This document shows positions 3,282 through 63,571 of a stretch of 64,000 nt of DNA, in pieces (the stretch's first letter is position 1; each line of letters begins with the position of its first letter). The position numbers were made by a program, and so were the translations under genes. The notes beneath the pieces were generated by a model. The model did not search any database. It was not told where the DNA came from and saw only the letters and a list, made by a program, of their open reading frames with translations. The DNA is from an uncultured Chloroflexia bacterium (GTDB lineage Bacteria; Chloroflexota; Limnocylindria; Limnocylindrales; CSP1-4). The stretch lies in contig CAWHDR010000002.1 in the NCBI GenBank assembly GCA_963828165.1, positions 1-64,000 of the forward strand. Direction: 5' to 3'.

Positions 3282-5435
3282 ATGCCGGAAGTCCTCACCG
3301 AATCATTCTGCGAACGCTGCGGGACCCGCTACACGTTCGAGTCCGCGGTTCCTCGGGTCGCCCGCCTCAAGGGTCTACGGGTCATGTCGCGTGGCCTGAA
3401 GAATTTCGTCCTGTCGGACGACACGTCCATGGACGAGGCCTTCGCCGCGGCGCGCAACGAGACCGACCGCGAGGTCACGTCGCAACAGCTCGACGCATTC
3501 CACAAGACCTTCAACTTCTGCATGTCGTGCCGGCAGTACACGTGCAGCAACTGCTGGAACACGGCCGAGGGTCGCTGCCTGTCGTGCGCTCCGCTCCTCG
3601 GCGAGGAGATGCTCGCCGCGCCCTTCCCGGATCTCGATCTCTCGGGCGGCGCGGTGATGGCCGACACGAACGGACACGCCGCGGTCGGGGACGGTCGCGA
3701 GGATGGCTCGCCGCTGGACACGCTGGCCTGGCCGACCGCGGACGTCCCCCACGAGGATGGCGCGATCCCGGCCCCCACGTTCGAGGCCGGGCCGACCGAT
3801 GACTCGGGGGACGTCGATATCATGGCCCGCCTCGCTGGGCTCGGCACGACTCGAGCGGCCGCGTCGGTCGACGCCGTCGAGCCCGACGTCGAGGCTGGGC
3901 TACGGGCGGAGATCGAAGCCGCCGCGGAAGCCGAGGCCGCGGCGCAGGCGGAGGCCGAGGCGGCCAGGGTCCAGGCGGAGGTCGAGGCGGCCAGGGTCCA
4001 GGCGGAGGCCGCGGCCGAGGCTGAAGCGATGGCCGAAGCGGCCAAGGTCCAGGCGGAAGCCGAGGCAGCAGCTGCGGCCGAGGCCGCCAGGCTCGAGGCG
4101 GAGGCCGAGGCCGAGGCTGTAGCGGCGGCCGAGGCCGCCCGGGTGGAAGCGGAGGCCGAGGCTGCCAGGCTGGAGGCTGAAGCCGCAGCGGCGGCCGAGG
4201 CCGCAAGGCTCCACGCCGAGGCGGTGGCGATCGCGGCGGCGGAAGCAGCCGAGTCCAAGCGCCGCGCGGAGGCGGAGGCCGAAGCGGCCGAGACCAGGCG
4301 TCAGATGGAGTTCGCGGCTGCGGCCGCGTTCCTGGCCGCCGAGAGCCGACGGCAAGCGGAGGCCGAAGCGGCGGCCAAGGCCGAGGCCGCCAGGCTCCAG
4401 GCTGAGGCCGAAGCTCGCGCGGAGTTCGAGGCTGCCGAGGCCAGGCGCCAGGCGGAGGCGGCAGCCGCCGCCGAGGCCGAAGCCGAACAGATCCGGGCGG
4501 AGGCCGAAGCGGCCGCGCAGGCCGAAGCGGCCCGGCAGGAAGCGGAGGCCGCAGCACGAGCCGAATTCGAAGCCGCCGAGGCCAGGAGGGCGGCGGAGGC
4601 CGCAGCGGCCGCGGAGGCGGAGGCTGCCCGACGCCAGGCGGAGATCGAGGCCGCGGAAGCGGCTGCCGCAGCCGAGGCGGAGGCCGCGAGGCTCAAGGCC
4701 GAAGCCGAGGCGGAGGAAGCGCGCCTGGCCGAAGAAGCCCGTTTGGCGGAAGAGGCGGAGGCAGCCCGGCTCACGGCAGCGGCCCTCGCGGCCGCGGAGG
4801 CAGCCCGAGCCCAGGAAGAGGCAGAAGCCGAGGCAGAGAGGATCCGGGTCGCAGCCGCAGCGGTTGCCGCCGCCGAAGCCGAGGCCGCCCGCGTCGCCGC
4901 CGAAGCCGAAGCCGCCCGCGTCGCCGCCGAAGCCGCCCGCGTCGCCGCCGAAGCCGCCCGCGTCGCCGCCGAAGCCGAAGCCGCCCGTGTCGCCGCCGAA
5001 GCCGAAGAAGCCCGCATCGCGACGGAGGCCGCCGCTGCCGCCGAAGCCGAAGCGGCCCGCGATGTCGTGGCGCAGCCGACGTGGCAGACGATCGCTCCGG
5101 ACAGCACGCCCGCCACGCCACCGCCCCCGGGCACGGTCCAACCGGGCGGTCCAGCTGCCCCGGCCGACCAGATCTCCGCAAGCGCCGAGCCGGAATGGCC
5201 CACCCAGCCCGAATGGCCCAGCCAGCGGCCCGCCGCAGGGCTTCCGTTCCTGGGCCGGCCGGCCCAGCCCACCGGCGGGATCGAGGCCCTCTGGGCCGAG
5301 TCCGCCCGCGAGGTCGCGTCGACCGCCGACCCGGCGGCGCGAGCCGCGGGAGGCGTCCAGCCATGCGTCAGTTGCGGGCTGTCACTCTCCGCCACGGCTC
5401 GATTCTGCCGGCGTTGCGGGACCAGGCAGGGCTGA
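3282..5435 (+). CDS. Zinc-ribbon protein with a long Ala/Glu-rich coiled coil (717 aa), function unknown
   Basis: CERC and CMSC..TCSNC..CLSC at the N-terminus, about 390 aa of AEAEAAR-type repeats, Pro-rich linker, C-terminal CVSC..FCRRCG. TATACT upstream at about 3215. Confidence 0.85.
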   Translation: MPEVLTESFCERCGTRYTFESAVPRVARLKGLRVMSRGLKNFVLSDDTSMDEAFAAARNETDREVTSQQLDAFHKTFNFCMSCRQYTCSNCWNTAEGRCLSCAPLLGEEMLAAPFPDLDLSGGAVMADTNGHAAVGDGREDGSPLDTLAWPTADVPHEDGAIPAPTFEAGPTDDSGDVDIMARLAGLGTTRAAASVDAVEPDVEAGLRAEIEAAAEAEAAAQAEAEAARVQAEVEAARVQAEAAAEAEAMAEAAKVQAEAEAAAAAEAARLEAEAEAEAVAAAEAARVEAEAEAARLEAEAAAAAEAARLHAEAVAIAAAEAAESKRRAEAEAEAAETRRQMEFAAAAAFLAAESRRQAEAEAAAKAEAARLQAEAEARAEFEAAEARRQAEAAAAAEAEAEQIRAEAEAAAQAEAARQEAEAAARAEFEAAEARRAAEAAAAAEAEAARRQAEIEAAEAAAAAEAEAARLKAEAEAEEARLAEEARLAEEAEAARLTAAALAAAEAARAQEEAEAEAERIRVAAAAVAAAEAEAARVAAEAEAARVAAEAARVAAEAARVAAEAEAARVAAEAEEARIATEAAAAAEAEAARDVVAQPTWQTIAPDSTPATPPPPGTVQPGGPAAPADQISASAEPEWPTQPEWPSQRPAAGLPFLGRPAQPTGGIEALWAESAREVASTADPAARAAGGVQPCVSCGLSLSATARFCRRCGTRQG
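4872..5020 (+). repeat. Intragenic tandem repeat of 21/27-bp units encoding (AE)AEAARVA
   Basis: gccgaagccgcccgcgtcgcc repeated about five times, nearly identical. Confidence 0.85.
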
Positions 5436-20883: not shown

Positions 20884-21124
20884 AAAAACAAGAAGCCCGC
20901 TCGTCCAGCGGACGAACGGGTCGTGGTACCACCTGCTGGTTCGGTGTCGGTCCCGTGGCGGTCATCCCGCCCGGGCTGGCTCCGGCACCCTCTCGACGCG
21001 CTATCGGGCGTCATGCGCACGGCTCGCGAGCGACGTTCACGCCGGTGGATCCGCGCGGCTCGCACCATCCCGCGCTCGCTTCGGGCCGTCCCGACGCTAC
21101 TCTTCTGCGGTCATCGCCGTGAAG
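20884..21124 (-). promoter_or_regulatory. T-box riboswitch (Val) with intrinsic terminator
   Basis: Minus strand: GCGATGA..AGAGTAG..AGCGAG..GGATGGTGCGAG stem I motifs, GAAC-GTC candidate Val specifier (21032-21034), T-box AGCAGGTGGTACCACG (20922-20937), hairpin 20896-20920 plus U-rich tract, TACACT -10 at 21131-21136. Confidence 0.9.
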
Positions 21125-24075
21125 GCGGGGAGTGTAGCACGGGCGTAGGCTCGCTCCGCGACGCCGTGCGAGTCGACGCCCAGACCGCGATCTCCGCTCG
21201 CCGGCCCATGCCGAGCTTCGCGAGGATGTGTTCGACGTGCGACGCGACCGTCTTGCGGGTGATCGTCAGCTCCGCGGCGATCTCGACGTTGGTGGCGCCA
21301 TCGGCGATGAGGCGCGCCACCTCGAACTCCCGGCTCGTCAGCGGGGCCCATGGCTCAGGCTGCGCCCCACGACCGGCCACGCGCAGGACATCGTCGGCCG
21401 CGGCAACGATCGCCATGGCCCCGAATCGCGCGGCGATCTCGCGCGCTTCGGCCGCCCGTCGCGCCGCATCGGCGCGCTGGTTGGACCGCAGATGCGCACG
21501 GGCCAGGTCGGCCAACGCCCACGTGCCCTCCCAGGATCGTCGGCGCGCGGCCCAGCCCTCGACTGCCGCCGTGAGCGACAACCGCGCCCGGCCGGTCGCG
21601 CCTTCGGACGTGGCCAACAGGCCCTCGGCGTGGGCGATGGCTGGCGCGGTCCCGGGGATCGCCCGCGCCCGGATGGGCTCAGCGACCGCATCGAACCAGC
21701 GACTGGCGGCACGTGGGTCGTTCAGGGCCAGGTACGCCCGGGCGCCAGTGACGAGGAACGGGTAGAGGTACGCCGCGTCGTCGACCGCCGCGGACGCGAC
21801 GCGCGCTTCCTCCGCAAGGTCGGCGGCCGTCGCGGCGTCGCCGCGCGCCAAAGCCACCTCGGCCAGGCCCCACAACGCCGGCGACAGGCGCTGGAGCTCC
21901 CGCATCCGCGATCCCAGCTCACGCGCCTCTTCGAGTGCGGCCGTCGCGGCCAAGAGCTCACCACGCCCCAACGCCACATAGCCGAGTACGTGGAGGGCGG
22001 TGACGCGCGTGGTGATCCCGCCGCGCCCGTCGGCGAGCGCTCGTCTTGCGATCTCGTCCGCATCGGCCCAGCGGCCCACCGCCCAGAGCACGTGCGCCAG
22101 GTGCGCGGCCATGTAATGGCGATGGTTCCAGAGCTCGTGCCGTTCGGCCTCCTCGATCCCTTCGCCGAGCCATCGATCCGCCCGGTCGTACTCGACGAGC
22201 ACCGATGCGCACGAGCCGATCATCCGATAGGCGCGGGCCGCCGGACCGTCGAGGCCGTCGGCTCGCGCCCCGGTCACGGCCGCCTCGAGCAGGGACCAGC
22301 CTTCGTCCATCCGGCCGGCGAAGACGTAACACGACCCCGATGGTCGCGGCGGCGTCGTGTTCCGTGGCGCGGTCGCCGATGATCTCGGCCCCACGCCGCG
22401 CCTCGATCCCGTACTCCACCGCCTGATCGAGCCGCCGATCCAGCATGTAGGCGGCTGACAGTGCGCTGAGGAGCCGGGCGCGGACCCGGTCCGCCGCGGG
22501 ATCAGACGACGGCCCGTGGAGCGCCGGGGCCGCCGTGATCTCCTCGAGGGCGCCGCGCAACCGATCGGCCCGCGCTTCCAGGCCGTCCCCGAGCAGGTGG
22601 CGGGCCGCGACGAGCGGACCGACCACGGCTGCGGCAGCCAATAGCTCGCCGGCTGCCAGGTAGGCCTCGCGGGCGCGGTCGAAAGCCTCGCTCGCGGCCT
22701 CATTGTCGTCGGTGGCTGCCGCGCTCGAGCCATAGGCCTCCAGGATGCGCGCCCGGGTCGCCGGGTCCTGATCCGTGGGTGCGGTCCGAAGGGCGCAGGC
22801 ATAGAGCTCGCGCGCCTCCGCGTGGGATGACAGCGCCGACGCGGCATCCGCCGCCGCGAGAGCCGCCCCGAACGCTTCGTCGCGCCGGCCGGCCCGTTCA
22901 TAGTGGAGTGCCAGGAAGGCATCTGCCCCGACGTCGCTTCGACCGTTGGCCGCCTCAGCGATGCGCGAATGGAGCCGACGCCGCTCGGGTTCCGGGATGT
23001 CGGCGTAGATCGCGTCGCAGATCAGTCCGTGCCGGAACCCGTACCGCCCCGGAGCGTGGGCCGGCAGCAGGATGAAGTGGTCGGCCAGCTCCGCGAGCGG
23101 CGCTGACAGGTCGTCCGGCGCCTGGCCGGTCACGCTGGCGAGTAGCTCGAGATCGAACGACCGTCCGATGACGGCACCCGCCCGTGCCACGCTGGCCGCG
23201 GCCTCCGTCCGGCGGGCAAGCCTGGCGAGCACGGCGTCCTCGACCGTCTCGGGCACGTCGGCGTGGCGGACCTCGTCGGCCACCAGGGTCGAGGACCCCG
23301 CGAGGACGGCAAGGAGCTCCTCGACGTGGAGGGGGATGCCGTCCGTTCGCTCGTGGATCGCCTCGGCGACATCACGCGCCGGCGGCAGGTCGGAGCCCGT
23401 GAGCAACGTCGTCATCGTCGTCGTGTCCGCCGCGGTCAGTCGGTCCAGGCGGACCTCCTCGGCCTGCCGTCGGGCGAGCAGGCGGGAGCGCCACTCCCGC
23501 ATCGGGGCTCGCGGGAAGAGTTCGTCGCTCCGGTACGTCCCGATGACCAGCAGGCGTTCGTCGGGGACGCGGCGGGCCAGCGCCTCGAGGACCTCGAGCG
23601 TCAGGTCGTCGCTCCAGTGCAGGTCCTCCAGCGCCAGGACGGTCGGACCGCCGGCGGCCAGGCCGGCCAGGATCTCGGCGACGTCCAGGACGAGGAGGCG
23701 GCGGCGGCGCTGAGGATCGCCGGCGCCGGCTCGCTCCTCCTGGGCGCCAGCGTCCTCCAGGCGTCTGCCGAGCCGGGTCCCGATGTCGGCCAGCGCGGGC
23801 TGCCGCTGCATGGCGCGCGCGACATCGATGAGGATCGCGGCCGGGATTTGGATATCGCTCGGATACGCGCCGCCGCGGACCGTGCGGAGGCCGGCGGTCT
23901 CCGCGCGCCGCTCCATCGCGCCCAGGAGCCGGGTCTTGCCGACCCCGGCTTCTCCGGACAGCAGGAGGAAGCGCCCCCCGCCGGCCGCGACCTCGGCGAT
24001 CCGGCGATCCGCCAGCGCCAGGAGGTCATCACGGCCGACGAGCACCGGGCAGACAAGCGGTCGTCGGTCGTACAC
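21111..24075 (-). CDS. Large ATP-binding LuxR-family regulator (AAA ATPase, TPR-like region, LuxR HTH); one extra base near 22336
   Basis: LVGR, GEAGVGKT, LEDLHWSD, TDGIPL, FRHGL; C-terminal LTSREFEVARL..TNVEIA..TVASHVEHILAKLG. GTG at 24075 is 6 nt after TACACT. Confidence 0.9.
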
Positions 24076-24105
24076 GCCGAAAGTGTAGGTGACGGTCACG
24101 CGACC

Positions 24106-24975: not shown

Positions 24976-25041
24976 CGCCCGGCTGACACTCGCGTCATAG
25001 CGCGGTGCCGATCGACTGCCGGGCGGCGCCGCTACCTTTCC

Positions 25042-25789
25042 TTAGCGTCGGCGCCATGCGAACAATCGCGTGGCGCCGACATCGCACCACACAAGGCCGG
25101 GCTCGGACGGCGGGGCCGATCCTGTCATGAGTGCAGCGACCCACCCTCGCGACGACCCAGGAAATCGGCTGCCAAATGCCTCCGGATATCTCGCGACCAG
25201 TGCACGATTCCTCGCCGTCGCGCGCACGACCCAGACAAGTCCGGTCGAGCTGTCGCTGCCCCACCGCGCGATCGCGAGATCCTCGAGCTCCGCGCCCTTT
25301 CGGGCGCTGGATCGTGCGGCCGATCCGACATCCCCGATGGTGTTCCAGCATTCGACCTGGATCAACCGACGTAACGTCGCGGAAGCGAGGCCCACATCCA
25401 CGGAGCGCCACGGCTCCGCCGGGCGTGTCGGCAGTTCGAACGTCCCCGTGTAGCCCGCCAGGCGCCCGAGCCGCAGGACGAGTTCCTGGATCGCGAGATG
25501 GCCGGCGTCCGCCGTCGCCTCCAAGGGGTCCTTTCCGCCAAACGACACGATAAGCGGTCGATCGAGGGCAAGGGCGATCCGCTGCAGCGCATCGAGGTCG
25601 GGGTTTCCGATTCCCCGCTCGAATTCGACTCTCGACCATACGGCCGAGGCCGGCTCGCATGGCCAATTCGATCCGTGTCCAGCCGCGACGCTCGCGCATC
25701 GACTTGATCTCGGAACCGATGCGGGCCTGGAGATCGCGGTTCCGGCGATGGAGATCGATCGCGCGCTGGGGTCGTCTGACGCCGGGCAT
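25042..25789 (-). CDS. XRE-type HTH fused to a restriction-endonuclease-like C-terminal domain; one extra base near 25622
   Basis: IKSMRERRGWTRIELAMRAGL..SRI|ERG..NPDLDALQRIALAL HTH, then FE..SVDV..IQVECWN, a PD-(D/E)xK-like core. Confidence 0.7.
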
Positions 25790-25796
25790 GATCGTG

Positions 25797-25984
25797 CCAT
25801 GTTCATTCTTGGCACTTCACTGGCCGTTAGCCGCGGTGCGCAGCCTCATTCAAGCCGAACAACGAGGCCTAACGGGGCATCGCAGGCCACGGCATGTGCG
25901 TACCTGCGTGTACGGGTCCGTCGGTTCCGGCGCGATGACACCTTCGGCCCACAGATATGCTGGAAATGATCACGTGGCGTGCAT
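25797..25984. repeat. ~190-bp element with imperfect inverted-repeat ends (copy A)
   Basis: Ends CCATGTTCATT and AATGATCACGTGGCGTGCAT; both ends are shared with the element at 61982-62176. Confidence 0.55.
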
Positions 25985-26123
25985 CAAGGCCAAGTAGGGT
26001 CGTAGAGAGGCCCGGCCTCGCACGTGCGTTTCGTGGAGGACGACTCCGCGCTCGGGCACGTGCCCGAGCGCCCCTCGGTTCAGCCGAGTCCCCGGCAACT
26101 ACCGCGGTCGGCGCCTGCCTTCC

Positions 26124-28291: not shown

Positions 28292-29719
28292 TCATCGCGG
28301 GTCGTGGTCGTGGTCGTGGTCGTGCGCCGCGTGGTCGTGCGCGCCGTGGTCGTGCGCTCCGTGGTCGTGGCCGGCCGTGCCCTCCGCGCCACCCACCTGG
28401 TCCTCGAGGTGCGGCATCGGCGGGTGCTCCGGATGGTCCGCCAGCCACGCATCCACGATCCGTTCGATGACCCGGCTCCGGCGTAACGTGCTGCGGATGA
28501 ACGACCGGCCCCGTTCCGAGGCGAAGTACTCCGTCAGCCGCTCGTCGCCAGCGTATCGCTCGCGGCCCAATGCGACCTCGGCGTCGACGTCCGCGTCGGT
28601 GACCTCGAGGCTCTCCTCGTCGGCGACCTTCGAGAGCACGAGCAGCGTCTTGGCCCGCTTCTCGGCGTTCGGGCGGAATTCGGCGTGGATGTCTTCGCTG
28701 GTCTTCTCGACGGCCTTGAAGTACGCCTCTTCTGTGATGCCCTGGCGCGCGAGCGAGGCCCGGAACTCATCGTGCATGACCTCGACCTCCTGGTCGATCA
28801 GCACGTCGGGCAGCTCGACCGTGGCGTTGGCCACCGCGTACTCGATGATCCGGTCCGCGAACCCATGCCGGGCGCGGTCGAGCGCGTTCTCCTCGAGCCG
28901 CTTGCGGATGTCGCCCCGCATCTCTTCGAGCGACCCGAACTGCCCGACGCTGGCGATGAAGTCCTCGTCGAGGTCGGGCTGGATCTTCTCGCGAAGCTCC
29001 TTGACCTCGACGCTGAAATGGGCGACTTGGCCGGCAAGCGCCGGCTCGCCGTAGTCCTCGGGGAACGTGATGTCGAACTCGGTCGTCTCGCCGACCTTGA
29101 CGCCGATGAGGTTCGTTTCGAACCCGGGGATGAGGCGCTCCTGGCCGATGATCAGCGGCATCCGCTCGGACGTACCGCCCTCGAACGGCTCGCCGTCCTT
29201 GGTGCCGATGAACGAGATCACCGCGTAGTCGCCGTCCTGGGCGCCGCGGTCCTCGACCGGCGCGAGGGTCGCGTTCTGGTCGCGCAGCTCCTCGACGACC
29301 TGGTCGACGCGGGCGTCGTCGATGACGTCGATCTCGGGCGCGAAGTTGAAGTTGCGATAGTCCCCGAGGGTCACCTCGGGGCGGACCGGGACCGTCGCCT
29401 TGAAGATGAGCGGCTTGCCCTCCTCGGCCTGGACCACCTCCACGTCGGCGTTGCTCAACGGCAGGATCGCCTCCTGGATGATCGCTTCGCGATAGGCGTC
29501 CTGCATCAGGTGATCGACCGCCTCGTCGAGCACGACACCAGGCCCCAGATGTCGCTCGAGGACCGGGCGTGGTGCCTTGCCCGGTCGGAAGCCGGGCACA
29601 CGGGTCCGCCGGGCAAGCGCTCGTACGGCGTCGTTCAGCGCTCGCTCGAGACGCTCCGGGGGCAGCTCGATCTCGAGCTGGACGGTGGACTTGGGGGCCG
29701 GGGTACGGGTGACCTGCAT
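28292..29719 (-). CDS. tig: Trigger factor with His-rich C-terminal tail
   Basis: PGFRPGK ribosome-binding motif, FKBP domain (IPGFE, FPEDY), tig-clpP-clpX order. Confidence 0.96.
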   Translation of the reverse strand: MQVTRTPAPKSTVQLEIELPPERLERALNDAVRALARRTRVPGFRPGKAPRPVLERHLGPGVVLDEAVDHLMQDAYREAIIQEAILPLSNADVEVVQAEEGKPLIFKATVPVRPEVTLGDYRNFNFAPEIDVIDDARVDQVVEELRDQNATLAPVEDRGAQDGDYAVISFIGTKDGEPFEGGTSERMPLIIGQERLIPGFETNLIGVKVGETTEFDITFPEDYGEPALAGQVAHFSVEVKELREKIQPDLDEDFIASVGQFGSLEEMRGDIRKRLEENALDRARHGFADRIIEYAVANATVELPDVLIDQEVEVMHDEFRASLARQGITEEAYFKAVEKTSEDIHAEFRPNAEKRAKTLLVLSKVADEESLEVTDADVDAEVALGRERYAGDERLTEYFASERGRSFIRSTLRRSRVIERIVDAWLADHPEHPPMPHLEDQVGGAEGTAGHDHGAHDHGAHDHAAHDHDHDHDPR

Positions 29720-61887: not shown

Positions 61888-61981
61888 GCCTCGGGAGGCC
61901 GGCCGTGGGCGCGGGGGGCGGGGCGCTGCCAGGGGTGCCGCCGGGAGCCTGGACCTGCTGACCCTGGCGATGCAGCGGCGC

Positions 61982-62184
61982 ATGCACGCCACGTGTTCAT
62001 TCCGCGGGCATCGGTGCGACAACGGTCCGGCCGTCGACCCAGGTTCCTGTCTTCGACGGCGCGCTGCACACGACATGCGCAGCGGCACCGACAACGGCGT
62101 GATCCCAGGGCCCCATCGACCGTGGATGTCGGCGCGGCGCTGCTTGTCAGCGCGAAAACCCGGCAAATGAACATGGTGCGTGCA
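61982..62184. repeat. ~200-bp solo element with imperfect terminal inverted repeats (copy B)
   Basis: TGCACGCCACGTGTTCATTCCGCGGG versus reverse complement of the right end TGCACGCACCATGTTCATTTGCCGGG: 20 of 26 match. Confidence 0.55.
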
Positions 62185-62300
62185 CGTCGACGTCGTCGGC
62201 CACCGGCGGGTCCCGTCGACGGTCGTCGGCGAGAGCATCCGAGCCTCCGATGACGCGCCTACGTCATCTGTCGCGGCCCGGCCATCGTCATCCGACGACG

Positions 62301-62390: not shown

Positions 62391-62474
62391 ATGAAGATGC
62401 TGCTGAATCTCCGACGCACCGTGGCGCCTATCGGCGCAGCGGATCGCGGGAGATCTGTGCCCATCTCGAGCTAG
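62391..62474 (+). CDS. Putative 27-aa leader peptide MKMLLNLRRTVAPIGAADRGRSVPISS
   Basis: GGAGG RBS upstream; lies between the promoter and the terminator that precede the ABC operon. Confidence 0.5.
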   Translation: MKMLLNLRRTVAPIGAADRGRSVPISS

Positions 62475-62510: not shown

Positions 62511-62542
62511 AGCCGTGGGCCAGATCAGGCCCCGGCTTTTTT
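62511..62542 (+). terminator. Intrinsic terminator in the 5' leader (attenuator)
   Basis: agccgtgggcc-agatca-ggccccggct followed by a T run, about 140 nt before the ABC ATPase start. Confidence 0.75.
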
Positions 62543-62683
62543 GATGTCCCTCCCCTGCCGCCCGGCAGGACCCAGGAACCGACATCACGAGCCGCGAGGC
62601 CACCCGACGAAGCGTCGGACGAGGCCCGCGGCTCGTTCTTTCCCCGGAACCTCCCTCCCACCCCACGACCCAGGAGCCACGAA

Positions 62684-63571
62684 GTGACCGCCACCTTGAC
62701 CAACCAACTGAAGACGACGACTCCGGTGGCTCGGCCGGCGTCCTCGGCCGTGACGTCGGCGGTGCCTGCCCTGCTCATGGAGGGCGTCAGCAAGTCGTTC
62801 GTCGTCGGCCGAAAGCGCAAGCCGGTGGCCGCGATCACCGATGTGTCGTTGCGCCTCGAGCGCGGCGACATCCACGGGATCCTCGGCGCCAACGGCTCGG
62901 GAAAGTCGACCCTCATCCGCCTCATCAGCGGGCTCCTGACCCTGGATTCGGGGCGGGTGGAGGTGTTCGGCCACGACCTGGAGCGCGAGGAGATGCAGGT
63001 CAAGCGACTGATCAACCGGGTCAGCGTGGACGCCGCGTTCTTCAAGAAGCTCAGCCCGATGGAGAACCTGTTGTTCGCGGCGCGGCTCTATGGCCTCGAT
63101 GGCAAGACCGCCCGCGCCGACGCGATCTCGATCATGGGCCGGCTCGGCATCAGCGAGAAGCGTGTCGGGCGGCCCGTGGAGCAGATGAGCCGAGGGATGC
63201 AGCAGAAGGTCGCGATCGCGCGAGCCCTGCTGACCAGCCCGACGCTCCTGCTCCTGGACGAACCGACGACCGGCCTGGACCCGCGCAGCAAGCTCGACGT
63301 CCAGACCTTCATCGAGGAGATCAACCAGACCCATGACGCGACGATCGTCCTGACGACCCACGACCTGGCCGAGGCCGAACGCCTCTGTGCACAGATCACG
63401 GTCCTCAACGACGGCCGGATCATCACCGACGGCACCCCGACCGAGCTCAAGGCGCAGACCACGCAACGCCTGGGCCGCGAGGCGTCCCTCGAGGACGTGT
63501 TCATGACCTACACCGGCCGCTCCCTCGACGACGACGTCGACGAGGACGAGAGCGGCGACGACGAAGACTGA
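62684..63571 (+). CDS. ABC-2 type exporter ATP-binding protein (DrrA-like)
   Basis: GANGSGKS, MSRGM, LLDEPTTGLDP, TTHD, SLEDVF. Confidence 0.92.
   Translation: MTATLTNQLKTTTPVARPASSAVTSAVPALLMEGVSKSFVVGRKRKPVAAITDVSLRLERGDIHGILGANGSGKSTLIRLISGLLTLDSGRVEVFGHDLEREEMQVKRLINRVSVDAAFFKKLSPMENLLFAARLYGLDGKTARADAISIMGRLGISEKRVGRPVEQMSRGMQQKVAIARALLTSPTLLLLDEPTTGLDPRSKLDVQTFIEEINQTHDATIVLTTHDLAEAERLCAQITVLNDGRIITDGTPTELKAQTTQRLGREASLEDVFMTYTGRSLDDDVDEDESGDDED

Follow-up and report, generated by a model that had tools for sequence, protein, structure and literature searches.

Why should a non-coding unit of about 195 bp, which stands at the start codon of a gene downstream of clpX, be found a second time, on its own, in the same DNA? 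This question is raised by the stretch of 64,000 nucleotides analyzed here (the window; positions 1 to 64,000 of contig CAWHDR010000002.1 from an uncultured Chloroflexia bacterium), in which the gene concerned codes for an XRE-type helix-turn-helix (HTH) domain joined to a domain of restriction-endonuclease-like fold. An earlier note on this DNA had regarded the unit as a DNA or RNA element cognate to the protein and accompanied by non-autonomous copies, by analogy with the repetitive extragenic palindromes (REPs) and their REP-associated tyrosine transposases (RAYTs), or with transposases and miniature inverted-repeat transposable elements (MITEs). The explanation favored here, which we hold to be probable, is that the unit is a docking module with three phase-locked operators for the product of the adjacent gene, autoregulatory where it accompanies the gene and present elsewhere as non-autonomous copies.

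We examined the ends of both window copies within the source assembly (G000; 3.31 Mb, 6 contigs, 70% G+C, 87.7% complete). The sequences CCATGTTCATT at 25797-25807 and AATGATCACGTGGCGTGCAT at 25965-25984 have their reverse complements at 62166-62176 (11/11 identity) and 61982-62001 (19/20), with spans between these ends of 188 bp in copy 1 and 195 bp in copy 2 and with interiors that align poorly, all of which agrees with the description of the paired inverted ends in the earlier note. The 20-mer AATGAWCACGTGGCGTGCAT, searched with up to 3 mismatches, gave two matches in the window versus 0.01 expected, and none of 100 shuffled sequences yielded two or more, which excludes chance as the origin of the end repeats. 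The whole assembly has two occurrences each of the 11-mer and of the 20-mer (up to 4 mismatches), all of them at copies 1 and 2. The conserved ends comprise 20 bp on each side and, read inward, both are versions of one 20-mer with the consensus GTGCACGCCNCATGTTCATT, which sets the limits of the two units as listed in Table 1. Each copy is bounded by its own imperfect terminal inverted repeats, and the alignment of copies uncovered a third conserved site in the middle of the module.

Table 1. Position of the gene, of the two modules and of their sites in the window.
Feature	Position	Strand	Remarks
XRE-HTH/restriction-endonuclease-fold gene	25042-25789	-	ATG at 25789, within the proximal repeat
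Copy 1, three-site module, 197 bp	25788-25984	-	between the clpX stop and the HTH gene; distal to proximal on the minus strand
Copy 1, distal 20-bp terminal repeat	25965-25984	-	ATGCACGCCACGTGATCATT on the minus strand
Copy 1, central 17-bp site	25884-25900	-	CGCACATGCCGTGGCCT on the minus strand; degenerate palindrome
Copy 1, proximal 20-bp repeat	25788-25807	-	AATGAACATGGCACGATCAT; overlaps the gene's ATG
Copy 2, solo three-site module, 204 bp	61982-62185	+	flanked by a GNAT acetyltransferase gene and an ABC-transporter operon leader
Copy 2, left 20-bp terminal repeat	61982-62001	+	ATGCACGCCACGTGTTCATT
Copy 2, central palindrome	62065-62081	+	TGCACACGACATGCGCA
Copy 2, right 20-bp terminal repeat	62166-62185	+	AATGAACATGGTGCGTGCAC
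Stretch of ~340 bp with copy 2	61897-62238	+	missing at the same intergenic site in 8 congeners

The module proved to be a member of a small family. A strict pattern for the ends, run on 401 genomes of the same taxonomic family with G000 counted among them, matched in five genomes (G000 included), with eight matches in G061. A first looser pattern, which misses window copy 1 (ATCATT in the distal repeat), returned 21 matches in G061, three in G222, two in G390 and one each in G077 and G000. With a second looser pattern, applied to G061, G000 and the two congeners of G061, G100 and G127, 24 matches were obtained in G061, two in G000, one, unverified, in G100 and none in G127. No control matches were observed with any of these three patterns. 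The patterns WTCATNN{120,200}NATGAW and TGWTCATN{120,205}ATGAWCA are too loose for any census, with a background of 0-12 matches per genome in coding sequence, above which G061 alone stands out at 29; and the pattern TGTTCATTN{143,173}AATGAACA, run on all contigs of the collection, is uninformative on distribution, since chance matches in AT-rich genomes are among the matches listed. The search for further copies that the earlier note had called for did bring to light a third one in G000 (G000:C1:2355831-2356012, downstream of a SpoU-type methylase gene), with orthologs at the same site in G014 and G120, and 30 copies from six genomes could be aligned (21 from G061, three from G222, two each from G000 and G390, and one each from G014 and G077).

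Besides the ends, this alignment revealed a 17-bp central palindrome, TGCWC-N7-GTGCA, together with a few short subterminal motifs, and all three sites match TGMAC-N7-GTKCA. Total lengths fall into classes of 183-184, 192-197, 202-206 and 216 bp, while the 60 centre-to-centre distances between sites cluster at 72, 81-84, 91-95 and 101-104 bp. A Rayleigh R of 0.90 was reached at periods of 10.4-10.8 bp, a value attained in 0 of 2000 simulations with uniform distances; because the copies are kin, this result is no strict probability, and the evidence consists in the several length classes one helical turn apart. With a helical turn taken as 10.4 bp, the mean phase comes close to zero, which places the sites on the same face of the helix. 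This contrasted with the DNA in between, as the mean interior identity among the 21 G061 copies was 0.62, compared with 0.58-0.59 in shuffled or reversed controls. Near-identical, young copies were not found (2 of 210 G061 pairs exceeded 0.75, one of them within a segmental duplication). Variable positions inside the repeats change without compensation, and open reading frames (ORFs) within the modules are not conserved between copies. The helical-turn spacing of the three sites argues for a protein-binding module acting at the level of DNA rather than RNA, and points to a unit of double-stranded DNA made for a protein.

The link between gene and module was not confined to the window. The order clpX, module, gene, with the proximal repeat lying over the ATG, is shared by G000, G077, G222 and G390, which belong to four genera, so that the tie between element and gene on which the earlier note was built extends to orthologs. 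More broadly, clpX adjoins the gene in 7 of the 30 best homolog loci, and matches to the protein family at E ≤1e-20 are present in 73 of 121 genomes, with up to 5 per genome. A second, intact paralog in G000 (C1:482953-483699, minus strand) is 59% identical to P0001, the intact ortholog from G077, and has two GACCATGCAG-type sites, 72 bp apart, about 200-280 bp upstream; this type of site is not dispersed in G000.

The association with paralogs, which the earlier note had proposed to examine, was assessed at 21 ortholog and paralog loci, one of which (L075) comes from the unpublished genome G121. The 20-mer at the start codon varies among them, and its inverted copy was detected 160-226 bp upstream at 11 loci with up to 6 mismatches and at 7 with up to 5 (10 and 6 of 20, respectively, when L075 is left out). 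Controls gave 0/21 with the reversed query, 0/21 with the complement, 1/21 in downstream coding DNA and 6/282 with foreign 20-mers. A middle site can often be recognized as well. Moreover, the recognition helix of the protein sorts with the site, RMVES going with ATGAAC, QSTIS with ATATCGC and, in the second G000 paralog, SRSAVSA with GACCATGCAG. Paralogs carry their own variants of the module. This co-variation of the start site and its upstream partner with the protein indicates that what had looked like an attached element is the gene's own three-operator control region. Judged from sequence comparison, the module at the gene is best read as an old, co-evolving control region, as would be expected of a protein together with its own operators.

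With regard to the protein, the window gene appears split: one extra base in GAATTC (~25622-25625), inside the HTH, gives rise to the two frames 24995-25789 and 25042-25815, and the gene is either a pseudogene or affected by an assembly indel. The neighboring gene for a large AAA-ATPase/LuxR-type regulator (21111-24099, minus strand) likewise consists of two ORFs (603 and 713 aa) that overlap and differ in frame, and this second apparent frameshift next to the HTH gene makes assembly indels plausible. In P0001, which has 251 residues, the HTH_3 family scored 41.4 bits against a cut-off of 23, whereas both pieces of the split window gene remained below that cut-off. Pfam gave HTH families only, and the C-terminal domain of P0001 belongs to no family in Pfam or NCBIfam. 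A sequence search of the Protein Data Bank also matched the HTH part only, with restriction-modification (R-M) controller proteins and SinR/HipB-type repressors as the closest entries, and the same held for PADLOC ('Control_protein', 1.5e-6). The ESM Atlas returned only unnamed Chloroflexota clusters, and full-text literature searches yielded, in the portions of text covered, no description of the element or of the protein family. There are more than 1,100 homologs, and every one with a known phylum is from Chloroflexota; judging by the names given to homologous proteins in their sources, the group belongs to Candidatus Limnocylindrales.

An AlphaFold2 model built from 30 homologs (predicted local distance difference test score, pLDDT, of 77; predicted template-modeling score of 0.72; C-terminal domain above 80 in most blocks of 10 residues) has in its C-terminal domain the alpha-beta-beta-beta-alpha-beta core of the PD-(D/E)xK fold, in line with the combination of HTH and PD-(D/E)xK-like domain seen in the earlier note. 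The structures that matched this domain were AF2093 (Z 9.0, root-mean-square deviation 2.5, 106 aligned residues), AF1548 (7.4), NucS (7.1), XisH (6.5) and Hjc (6.1), followed by FokI (5.9) and PaqCI (5.8), where a Z below 8 may mean a shared arrangement only; the top Foldseek matches were XisH-family excision factors (E 3e-3 and 4.6e-3). Within the domain, D131 is nearly invariant, and both E146 and K164, the latter in the next helix, are invariant. The canonical catalytic D...(D/E)xK motif is not present, however, as the lysine position is taken by an invariant tryptophan, W148. A homodimer was predicted with a score of 0.55, compared with 0.00 for the best of three controls. The two chains meet along the HTH region and the N-terminal helix; at least 59% of contacts are shared among the runs, and the pLDDT of the partner is 77 or higher. 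Among proteins of solved structure, the mark applied is attained by 20 of 30 pairs and by 1 of 23 single chains, and the pass may reflect likeness to solved XRE dimers. In G077, a small gene resembling S-adenosylmethionine-dependent methyltransferases (L010 2447-2977) comes right after the intact HTH/endonuclease-fold gene, a place at which the window has no such gene.

Both the gene-linked and the solo modules differ in their occurrence among related genomes. At least 10 genomes of the genus lack the gene, its module and a secreted-protein gene downstream of clpX; in these the matches flanking the slot lie 36-140 bp apart, compared with 1,682 bp in G000. G435 and G396 have the slot filled, and in G014 it holds a segment of equal size whose sequence has diverged too far to give a match; the variable slot postulated in the earlier note is thus indeed filled or empty within the genus. 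At copy 2, the flanks (the GNAT gene on one side and a conserved ABC-transporter leader on the other) are 0-83 bp apart in 8 congeners versus ~365 bp in G000, so that the ~340-bp stretch containing the module is lineage-specific. This insertion reaches ~85 and 53 bp past the repeats, and its ends do not coincide with them. Target-site duplications, for which the earlier note had suggested comparing filled and empty sites, were seen neither at the 30 copies, inspected by eye, nor at the filled/empty site of copy 2, and BLAST of the regions of copies 1, 2 and 3 against the whole G000 assembly disclosed neither a donor nor a shared flank. Copy 3 is 183, 183 and 182 bp long in G000, G014 and G120, with identities across the three species of 0.70-0.81 in the sites and 0.54-0.63 in the arms (near the random level for this scoring), which indicates that solo copies persist and that their sites are conserved. 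G058, from another genus, also has a QSTIS-type module that stands alone, with no adjoining gene.

The cognate gene locus of G061 has a more complex arrangement, consisting of a module (E1), a 5' fragment of a paralog (residues 1-34), a second module (E2), the full gene, which is frameshifted, a third module (E3) and a 3' fragment (residues 223-250; 57% identity over 28 residues, E 1e-5). The boundaries of the E2-gene-E3 unit (L091 3938-5071) coincide with the outer repeats, and the unit appears to have been inserted into a paralog or to have recombined with one. As for the empty sites sought in congeners of G061, one locus was unmatched and synteny was broken at the other. Among 20 loci checked, a module downstream of the gene is clear in G061 only, with 2 more weak cases, and the 67 flank sequences inspected gave no convincing gene remnant beside solo copies, apart from the fragments at E1 and E3 of the G061 gene locus.

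Taken together, the arrangement in three sites, their phasing, the link with the gene, the co-variation among paralogs and the presence/absence polymorphism can be read from the DNA itself. We infer that the protein encoded beside copy 1 is what binds there and that it represses, and likewise the way in which copies come about. In the mechanism that we propose, a dimer of the protein would bind each of the three 17-20-bp TGMAC-N7-GTKCA sites (the two inverted terminal ones and the central palindrome); with their centers 7 to 10 whole helical turns apart, the bound dimers would come to lie on the same side of the DNA and would join, probably via their C-terminal domains, into one wrapped or looped complex over ~190 bp. 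As the proximal site overlaps the start codon, such a complex would repress the protein's own gene. Solo copies, such as window copy 2, would be non-autonomous copies of the control region occupied in trans by the same protein, and might have an architectural role, serve as roadblocks or titrate the protein, or else be tolerated relics, in a logic resembling that of protein-binding repeats such as REPs and bacterial interspersed mosaic elements (BIMEs). Our guess is that they originated by duplication or movement of cassettes of module plus gene, with subsequent loss of the gene, rather than by cut-and-paste transposition. Of the pairing of a protein with cognate non-autonomous copies that the earlier note had suggested, the multi-copy family, the variants at paralogs and the solo QSTIS copy are retained, whereas the element at the gene is best read as a control region and not as a mobile element that landed beside it. 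Further copies do exist, paralogs are associated with the module, and the motif was not traced to the site of a known transcription factor.

A number of observations weigh against this explanation. Among the 26 copies with both neighbors called in our own ORF predictions, on which orientation is based, 9 lie between convergent genes, where it is hard to see what a repressor site would regulate, and 2 between divergent ones, the remainder having co-directional neighbors. The functions of the 49 neighboring proteins are unrelated. Modules of two specificity classes are located 130-240 bp upstream of sufB in two genera (L021 in G061 and L235 in G058), which is either a coincidence or a preferred landing place; they occur at only 2 of ~25 sufB loci examined, with none in G000, and the idea of a conserved regulon was rejected on this ground. 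No clear upstream partner was detected at 10 of the 21 ortholog and paralog loci with up to 6 mismatches, and plain repression does not explain the role of a strongly conserved endonuclease-fold domain. Finally, the cognate genes of G222 and G061 also appear frameshifted, and if these frameshifts and that of G000 are real, the modules in those genomes are left with no binder.

The strongest competitor of a docking module is an active mobile system, in which the protein would recognize the repeats and cut or nick the DNA, and solo modules and module-gene-module units would move by transposition or homing-like repair; we regard it as unlikely, though it deserves to be taken seriously. It would, with the same modest likelihood, amount to a new kind of mobile element, whose HTH/endonuclease-fold protein recognizes three phased sites and drives the copying of a ~195-bp module. 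The roles within it might then, tentatively, be distributed so that the G061 module-gene-module unit is autonomous, that copy 2 and at least 21 solo copies in G061 are non-autonomous, and that paralogs have matched specificities. Such a system would account for the terminal inverted repeats, for the lineage-specific insertion containing copy 2, for 24 copies in G061 against one unverified match and none in its two congeners, for the G061 unit lodged between paralog fragments, for the presence or absence of gene and module downstream of clpX, and for a fold like that of type IIS cleavage domains, Hjc, NucS and XisH with conserved D131, E146 and K164. It is at odds with the lack of target-site duplications, with an insertion at copy 2 that exceeds the repeats on both sides, with the lack of young copies, with the invariant tryptophan in place of the D...ExK lysine, with flanks devoid of convincing gene remnants outside the G061 gene locus, and with the restriction of clear downstream modules to G061. 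Mobilization by an unrelated transposase whose gene lies elsewhere or has been lost would make the module an ordinary MITE whose place beside an HTH gene is incidental. In being small (183-216 bp), non-coding, intergenic, variable in copy number between species and bounded by 20-bp imperfect inverted ends, it does resemble one. The module-gene-module unit of G061 might be a candidate for an autonomous partner; its gene is no known transposase. We nevertheless deem this origin improbable: an incidental neighbor would not be expected at the same start-codon place in four genera or to co-vary with the specificity of the paralogs, interiors at random level combined with spacing kept in helical steps do not fit it, and neither target duplications nor, among the 49 neighboring proteins scanned, a transposase, integrase or recombinase was found. 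As target duplications, a transposase and near-identical copies are all lacking and the protein is not of the RAYT type, we assign the module neither to the MITEs nor to the REP/RAYT systems, although its logic, as the earlier note had pointed out, resembles theirs.

The complementarity of the two module ends could instead mean that they pair into a long hairpin of a structured RNA, either a small RNA or a leader, and copy 2 does fold better than shuffled sequences on both strands (z -3.0 and -3.7). Copy 1, however, folds no better than shuffles (z -0.1 and -0.45), variable repeat positions show no compensatory change, length varies in steps of ~10.5 bp, and copies occur in all orientations relative to their neighbors. 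The only match in the window at the Rfam gathering score is a tRNA-Leu, and around four copies a limit of E 1 admitted just two sub-threshold matches at chance level; a role as RNA is accordingly very improbable. No more credit can be given to an invertible or excisable cassette, with the inverted repeats as sites of a site-specific recombinase and the center as an accessory site. Partly palindromic inverted repeats flanking a short segment, and XisH-family excision factors at the top of the Foldseek matches, would be in keeping with it, but no recombinase gene was found among the scanned neighbors, the four gene-linked copies align slightly better unflipped (5 of 6 pairs), and the segment is short for a known invertasome.

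Compared with known systems, the proposed docking module combines traits that are found separately elsewhere. REPs are hairpins of 20-40 bp, and the RAYT enzymes, tyrosine transposases of the HUH type, work on single-stranded DNA. The module is, unlike these, a double-stranded unit of ~195 bp with three phased sites, and its protein is an XRE-HTH protein in which Pfam finds no Y1 transposase domain. Like REPs and BIMEs with RAYTs (see also PMC3733652), it links one gene to dispersed, extragenic, protein-bound palindromic repeats, and those repeats, too, often lie between convergent genes and differ in copy number among genomes. The Correia elements of Neisseria, which are MITEs with an internal protein site, share with it the short, non-coding form with inverted ends and a central binding site, the discrete length classes and the intergenic position; in contrast to them, the module has no target duplication, near-identical copies or known transposase, and its ends co-vary with a neighboring regulator gene.

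For the HTH part, the closest solved sequences are R-M C proteins (C.BclI, E 9.6e-8, and C.AhdI), autoregulators that bind palindromic boxes at their own start. C proteins, however, have ~80 residues and are encoded beside endonuclease and methylase genes, while here the HTH is fused to an endonuclease-fold domain in a protein of 251 residues, the neighbors in the window are clpX and a secreted-protein gene with no methylase adjacent, and three sites extend over 190 bp. Operators separated by whole helical turns, with cooperative complexes over the regulator's own promoter, are also known from lac, gal, lambda CI and phage 186 CI, but these arrays occupy one locus only and are not known to be copied as solo modules. 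In type IIS/IIF enzymes (FokI, PaqCI and BspD6I; Z 5.7-5.9) a recognition domain likewise precedes a PD-(D/E)xK domain, and such enzymes need two or more sites for their action; here, unlike in those enzymes, there is no sequence similarity, the lysine is replaced by tryptophan, and the sites are in the protein's own chromosome, at its own promoter.

Several features in the surroundings of the modules and elsewhere in the window were also noted. A perfect 24-bp palindrome (GCGCTCGGGCACGTGCCCGAGCGC) at 26048-26071, between the clpX stop codon and copy 1, may be the clpX terminator hairpin, in a form that lacks a T-run. Beyond copy 2, upstream of the ABC-transporter ATPase gene at 62684-63571, there is a 27-codon ORF (62391-62474; MKMLLNLRRT...) that has a good ribosome-binding site, and after it come a hairpin and T-run at ~62521-62546; together they look like a leader-peptide attenuator. 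The DNA of this leader is near-identical among congeners, whereas that immediately upstream of it differs. Just beyond copy 3, the genus shares the stretch G000:C1:2356075-2356900 (L268 776-1601) at 85-96% identity. Its final ~350 bp are found again at C1:2373589 (99%), and many contigs of congeners break off there. The stretch would appear to be the upstream portion of a ribosomal RNA operon. Apart from the modules, a gene in the window contains a long run of diverged repeats with a 27-nt period (3897-5047; Ala/Glu-rich coding), and the trigger factor gene (28292-29719, minus strand) ends in a His/Asp-rich tail, HDHGAHDHGAHDHAAHDHDHDHD.

If the proposed explanation is true, it would join two subjects that are usually studied apart, namely the operators by which a repressor controls itself and a family of dispersed repeats, as a whole control region would have been copied with its sites held in register while the DNA between them was randomized. 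For annotation, this implies that such modules could be taken for MITEs or small RNAs. The copies would offer a natural set of phase-locked nucleoprotein modules for studies of DNA wrapping and looping, as well as a testable candidate for mobilization without any known transposase. For Chloroflexota, they would reveal an uncharacterized family of HTH/endonuclease-fold proteins that is specific to this phylum and in which pairs of recognition helix and site can be read.

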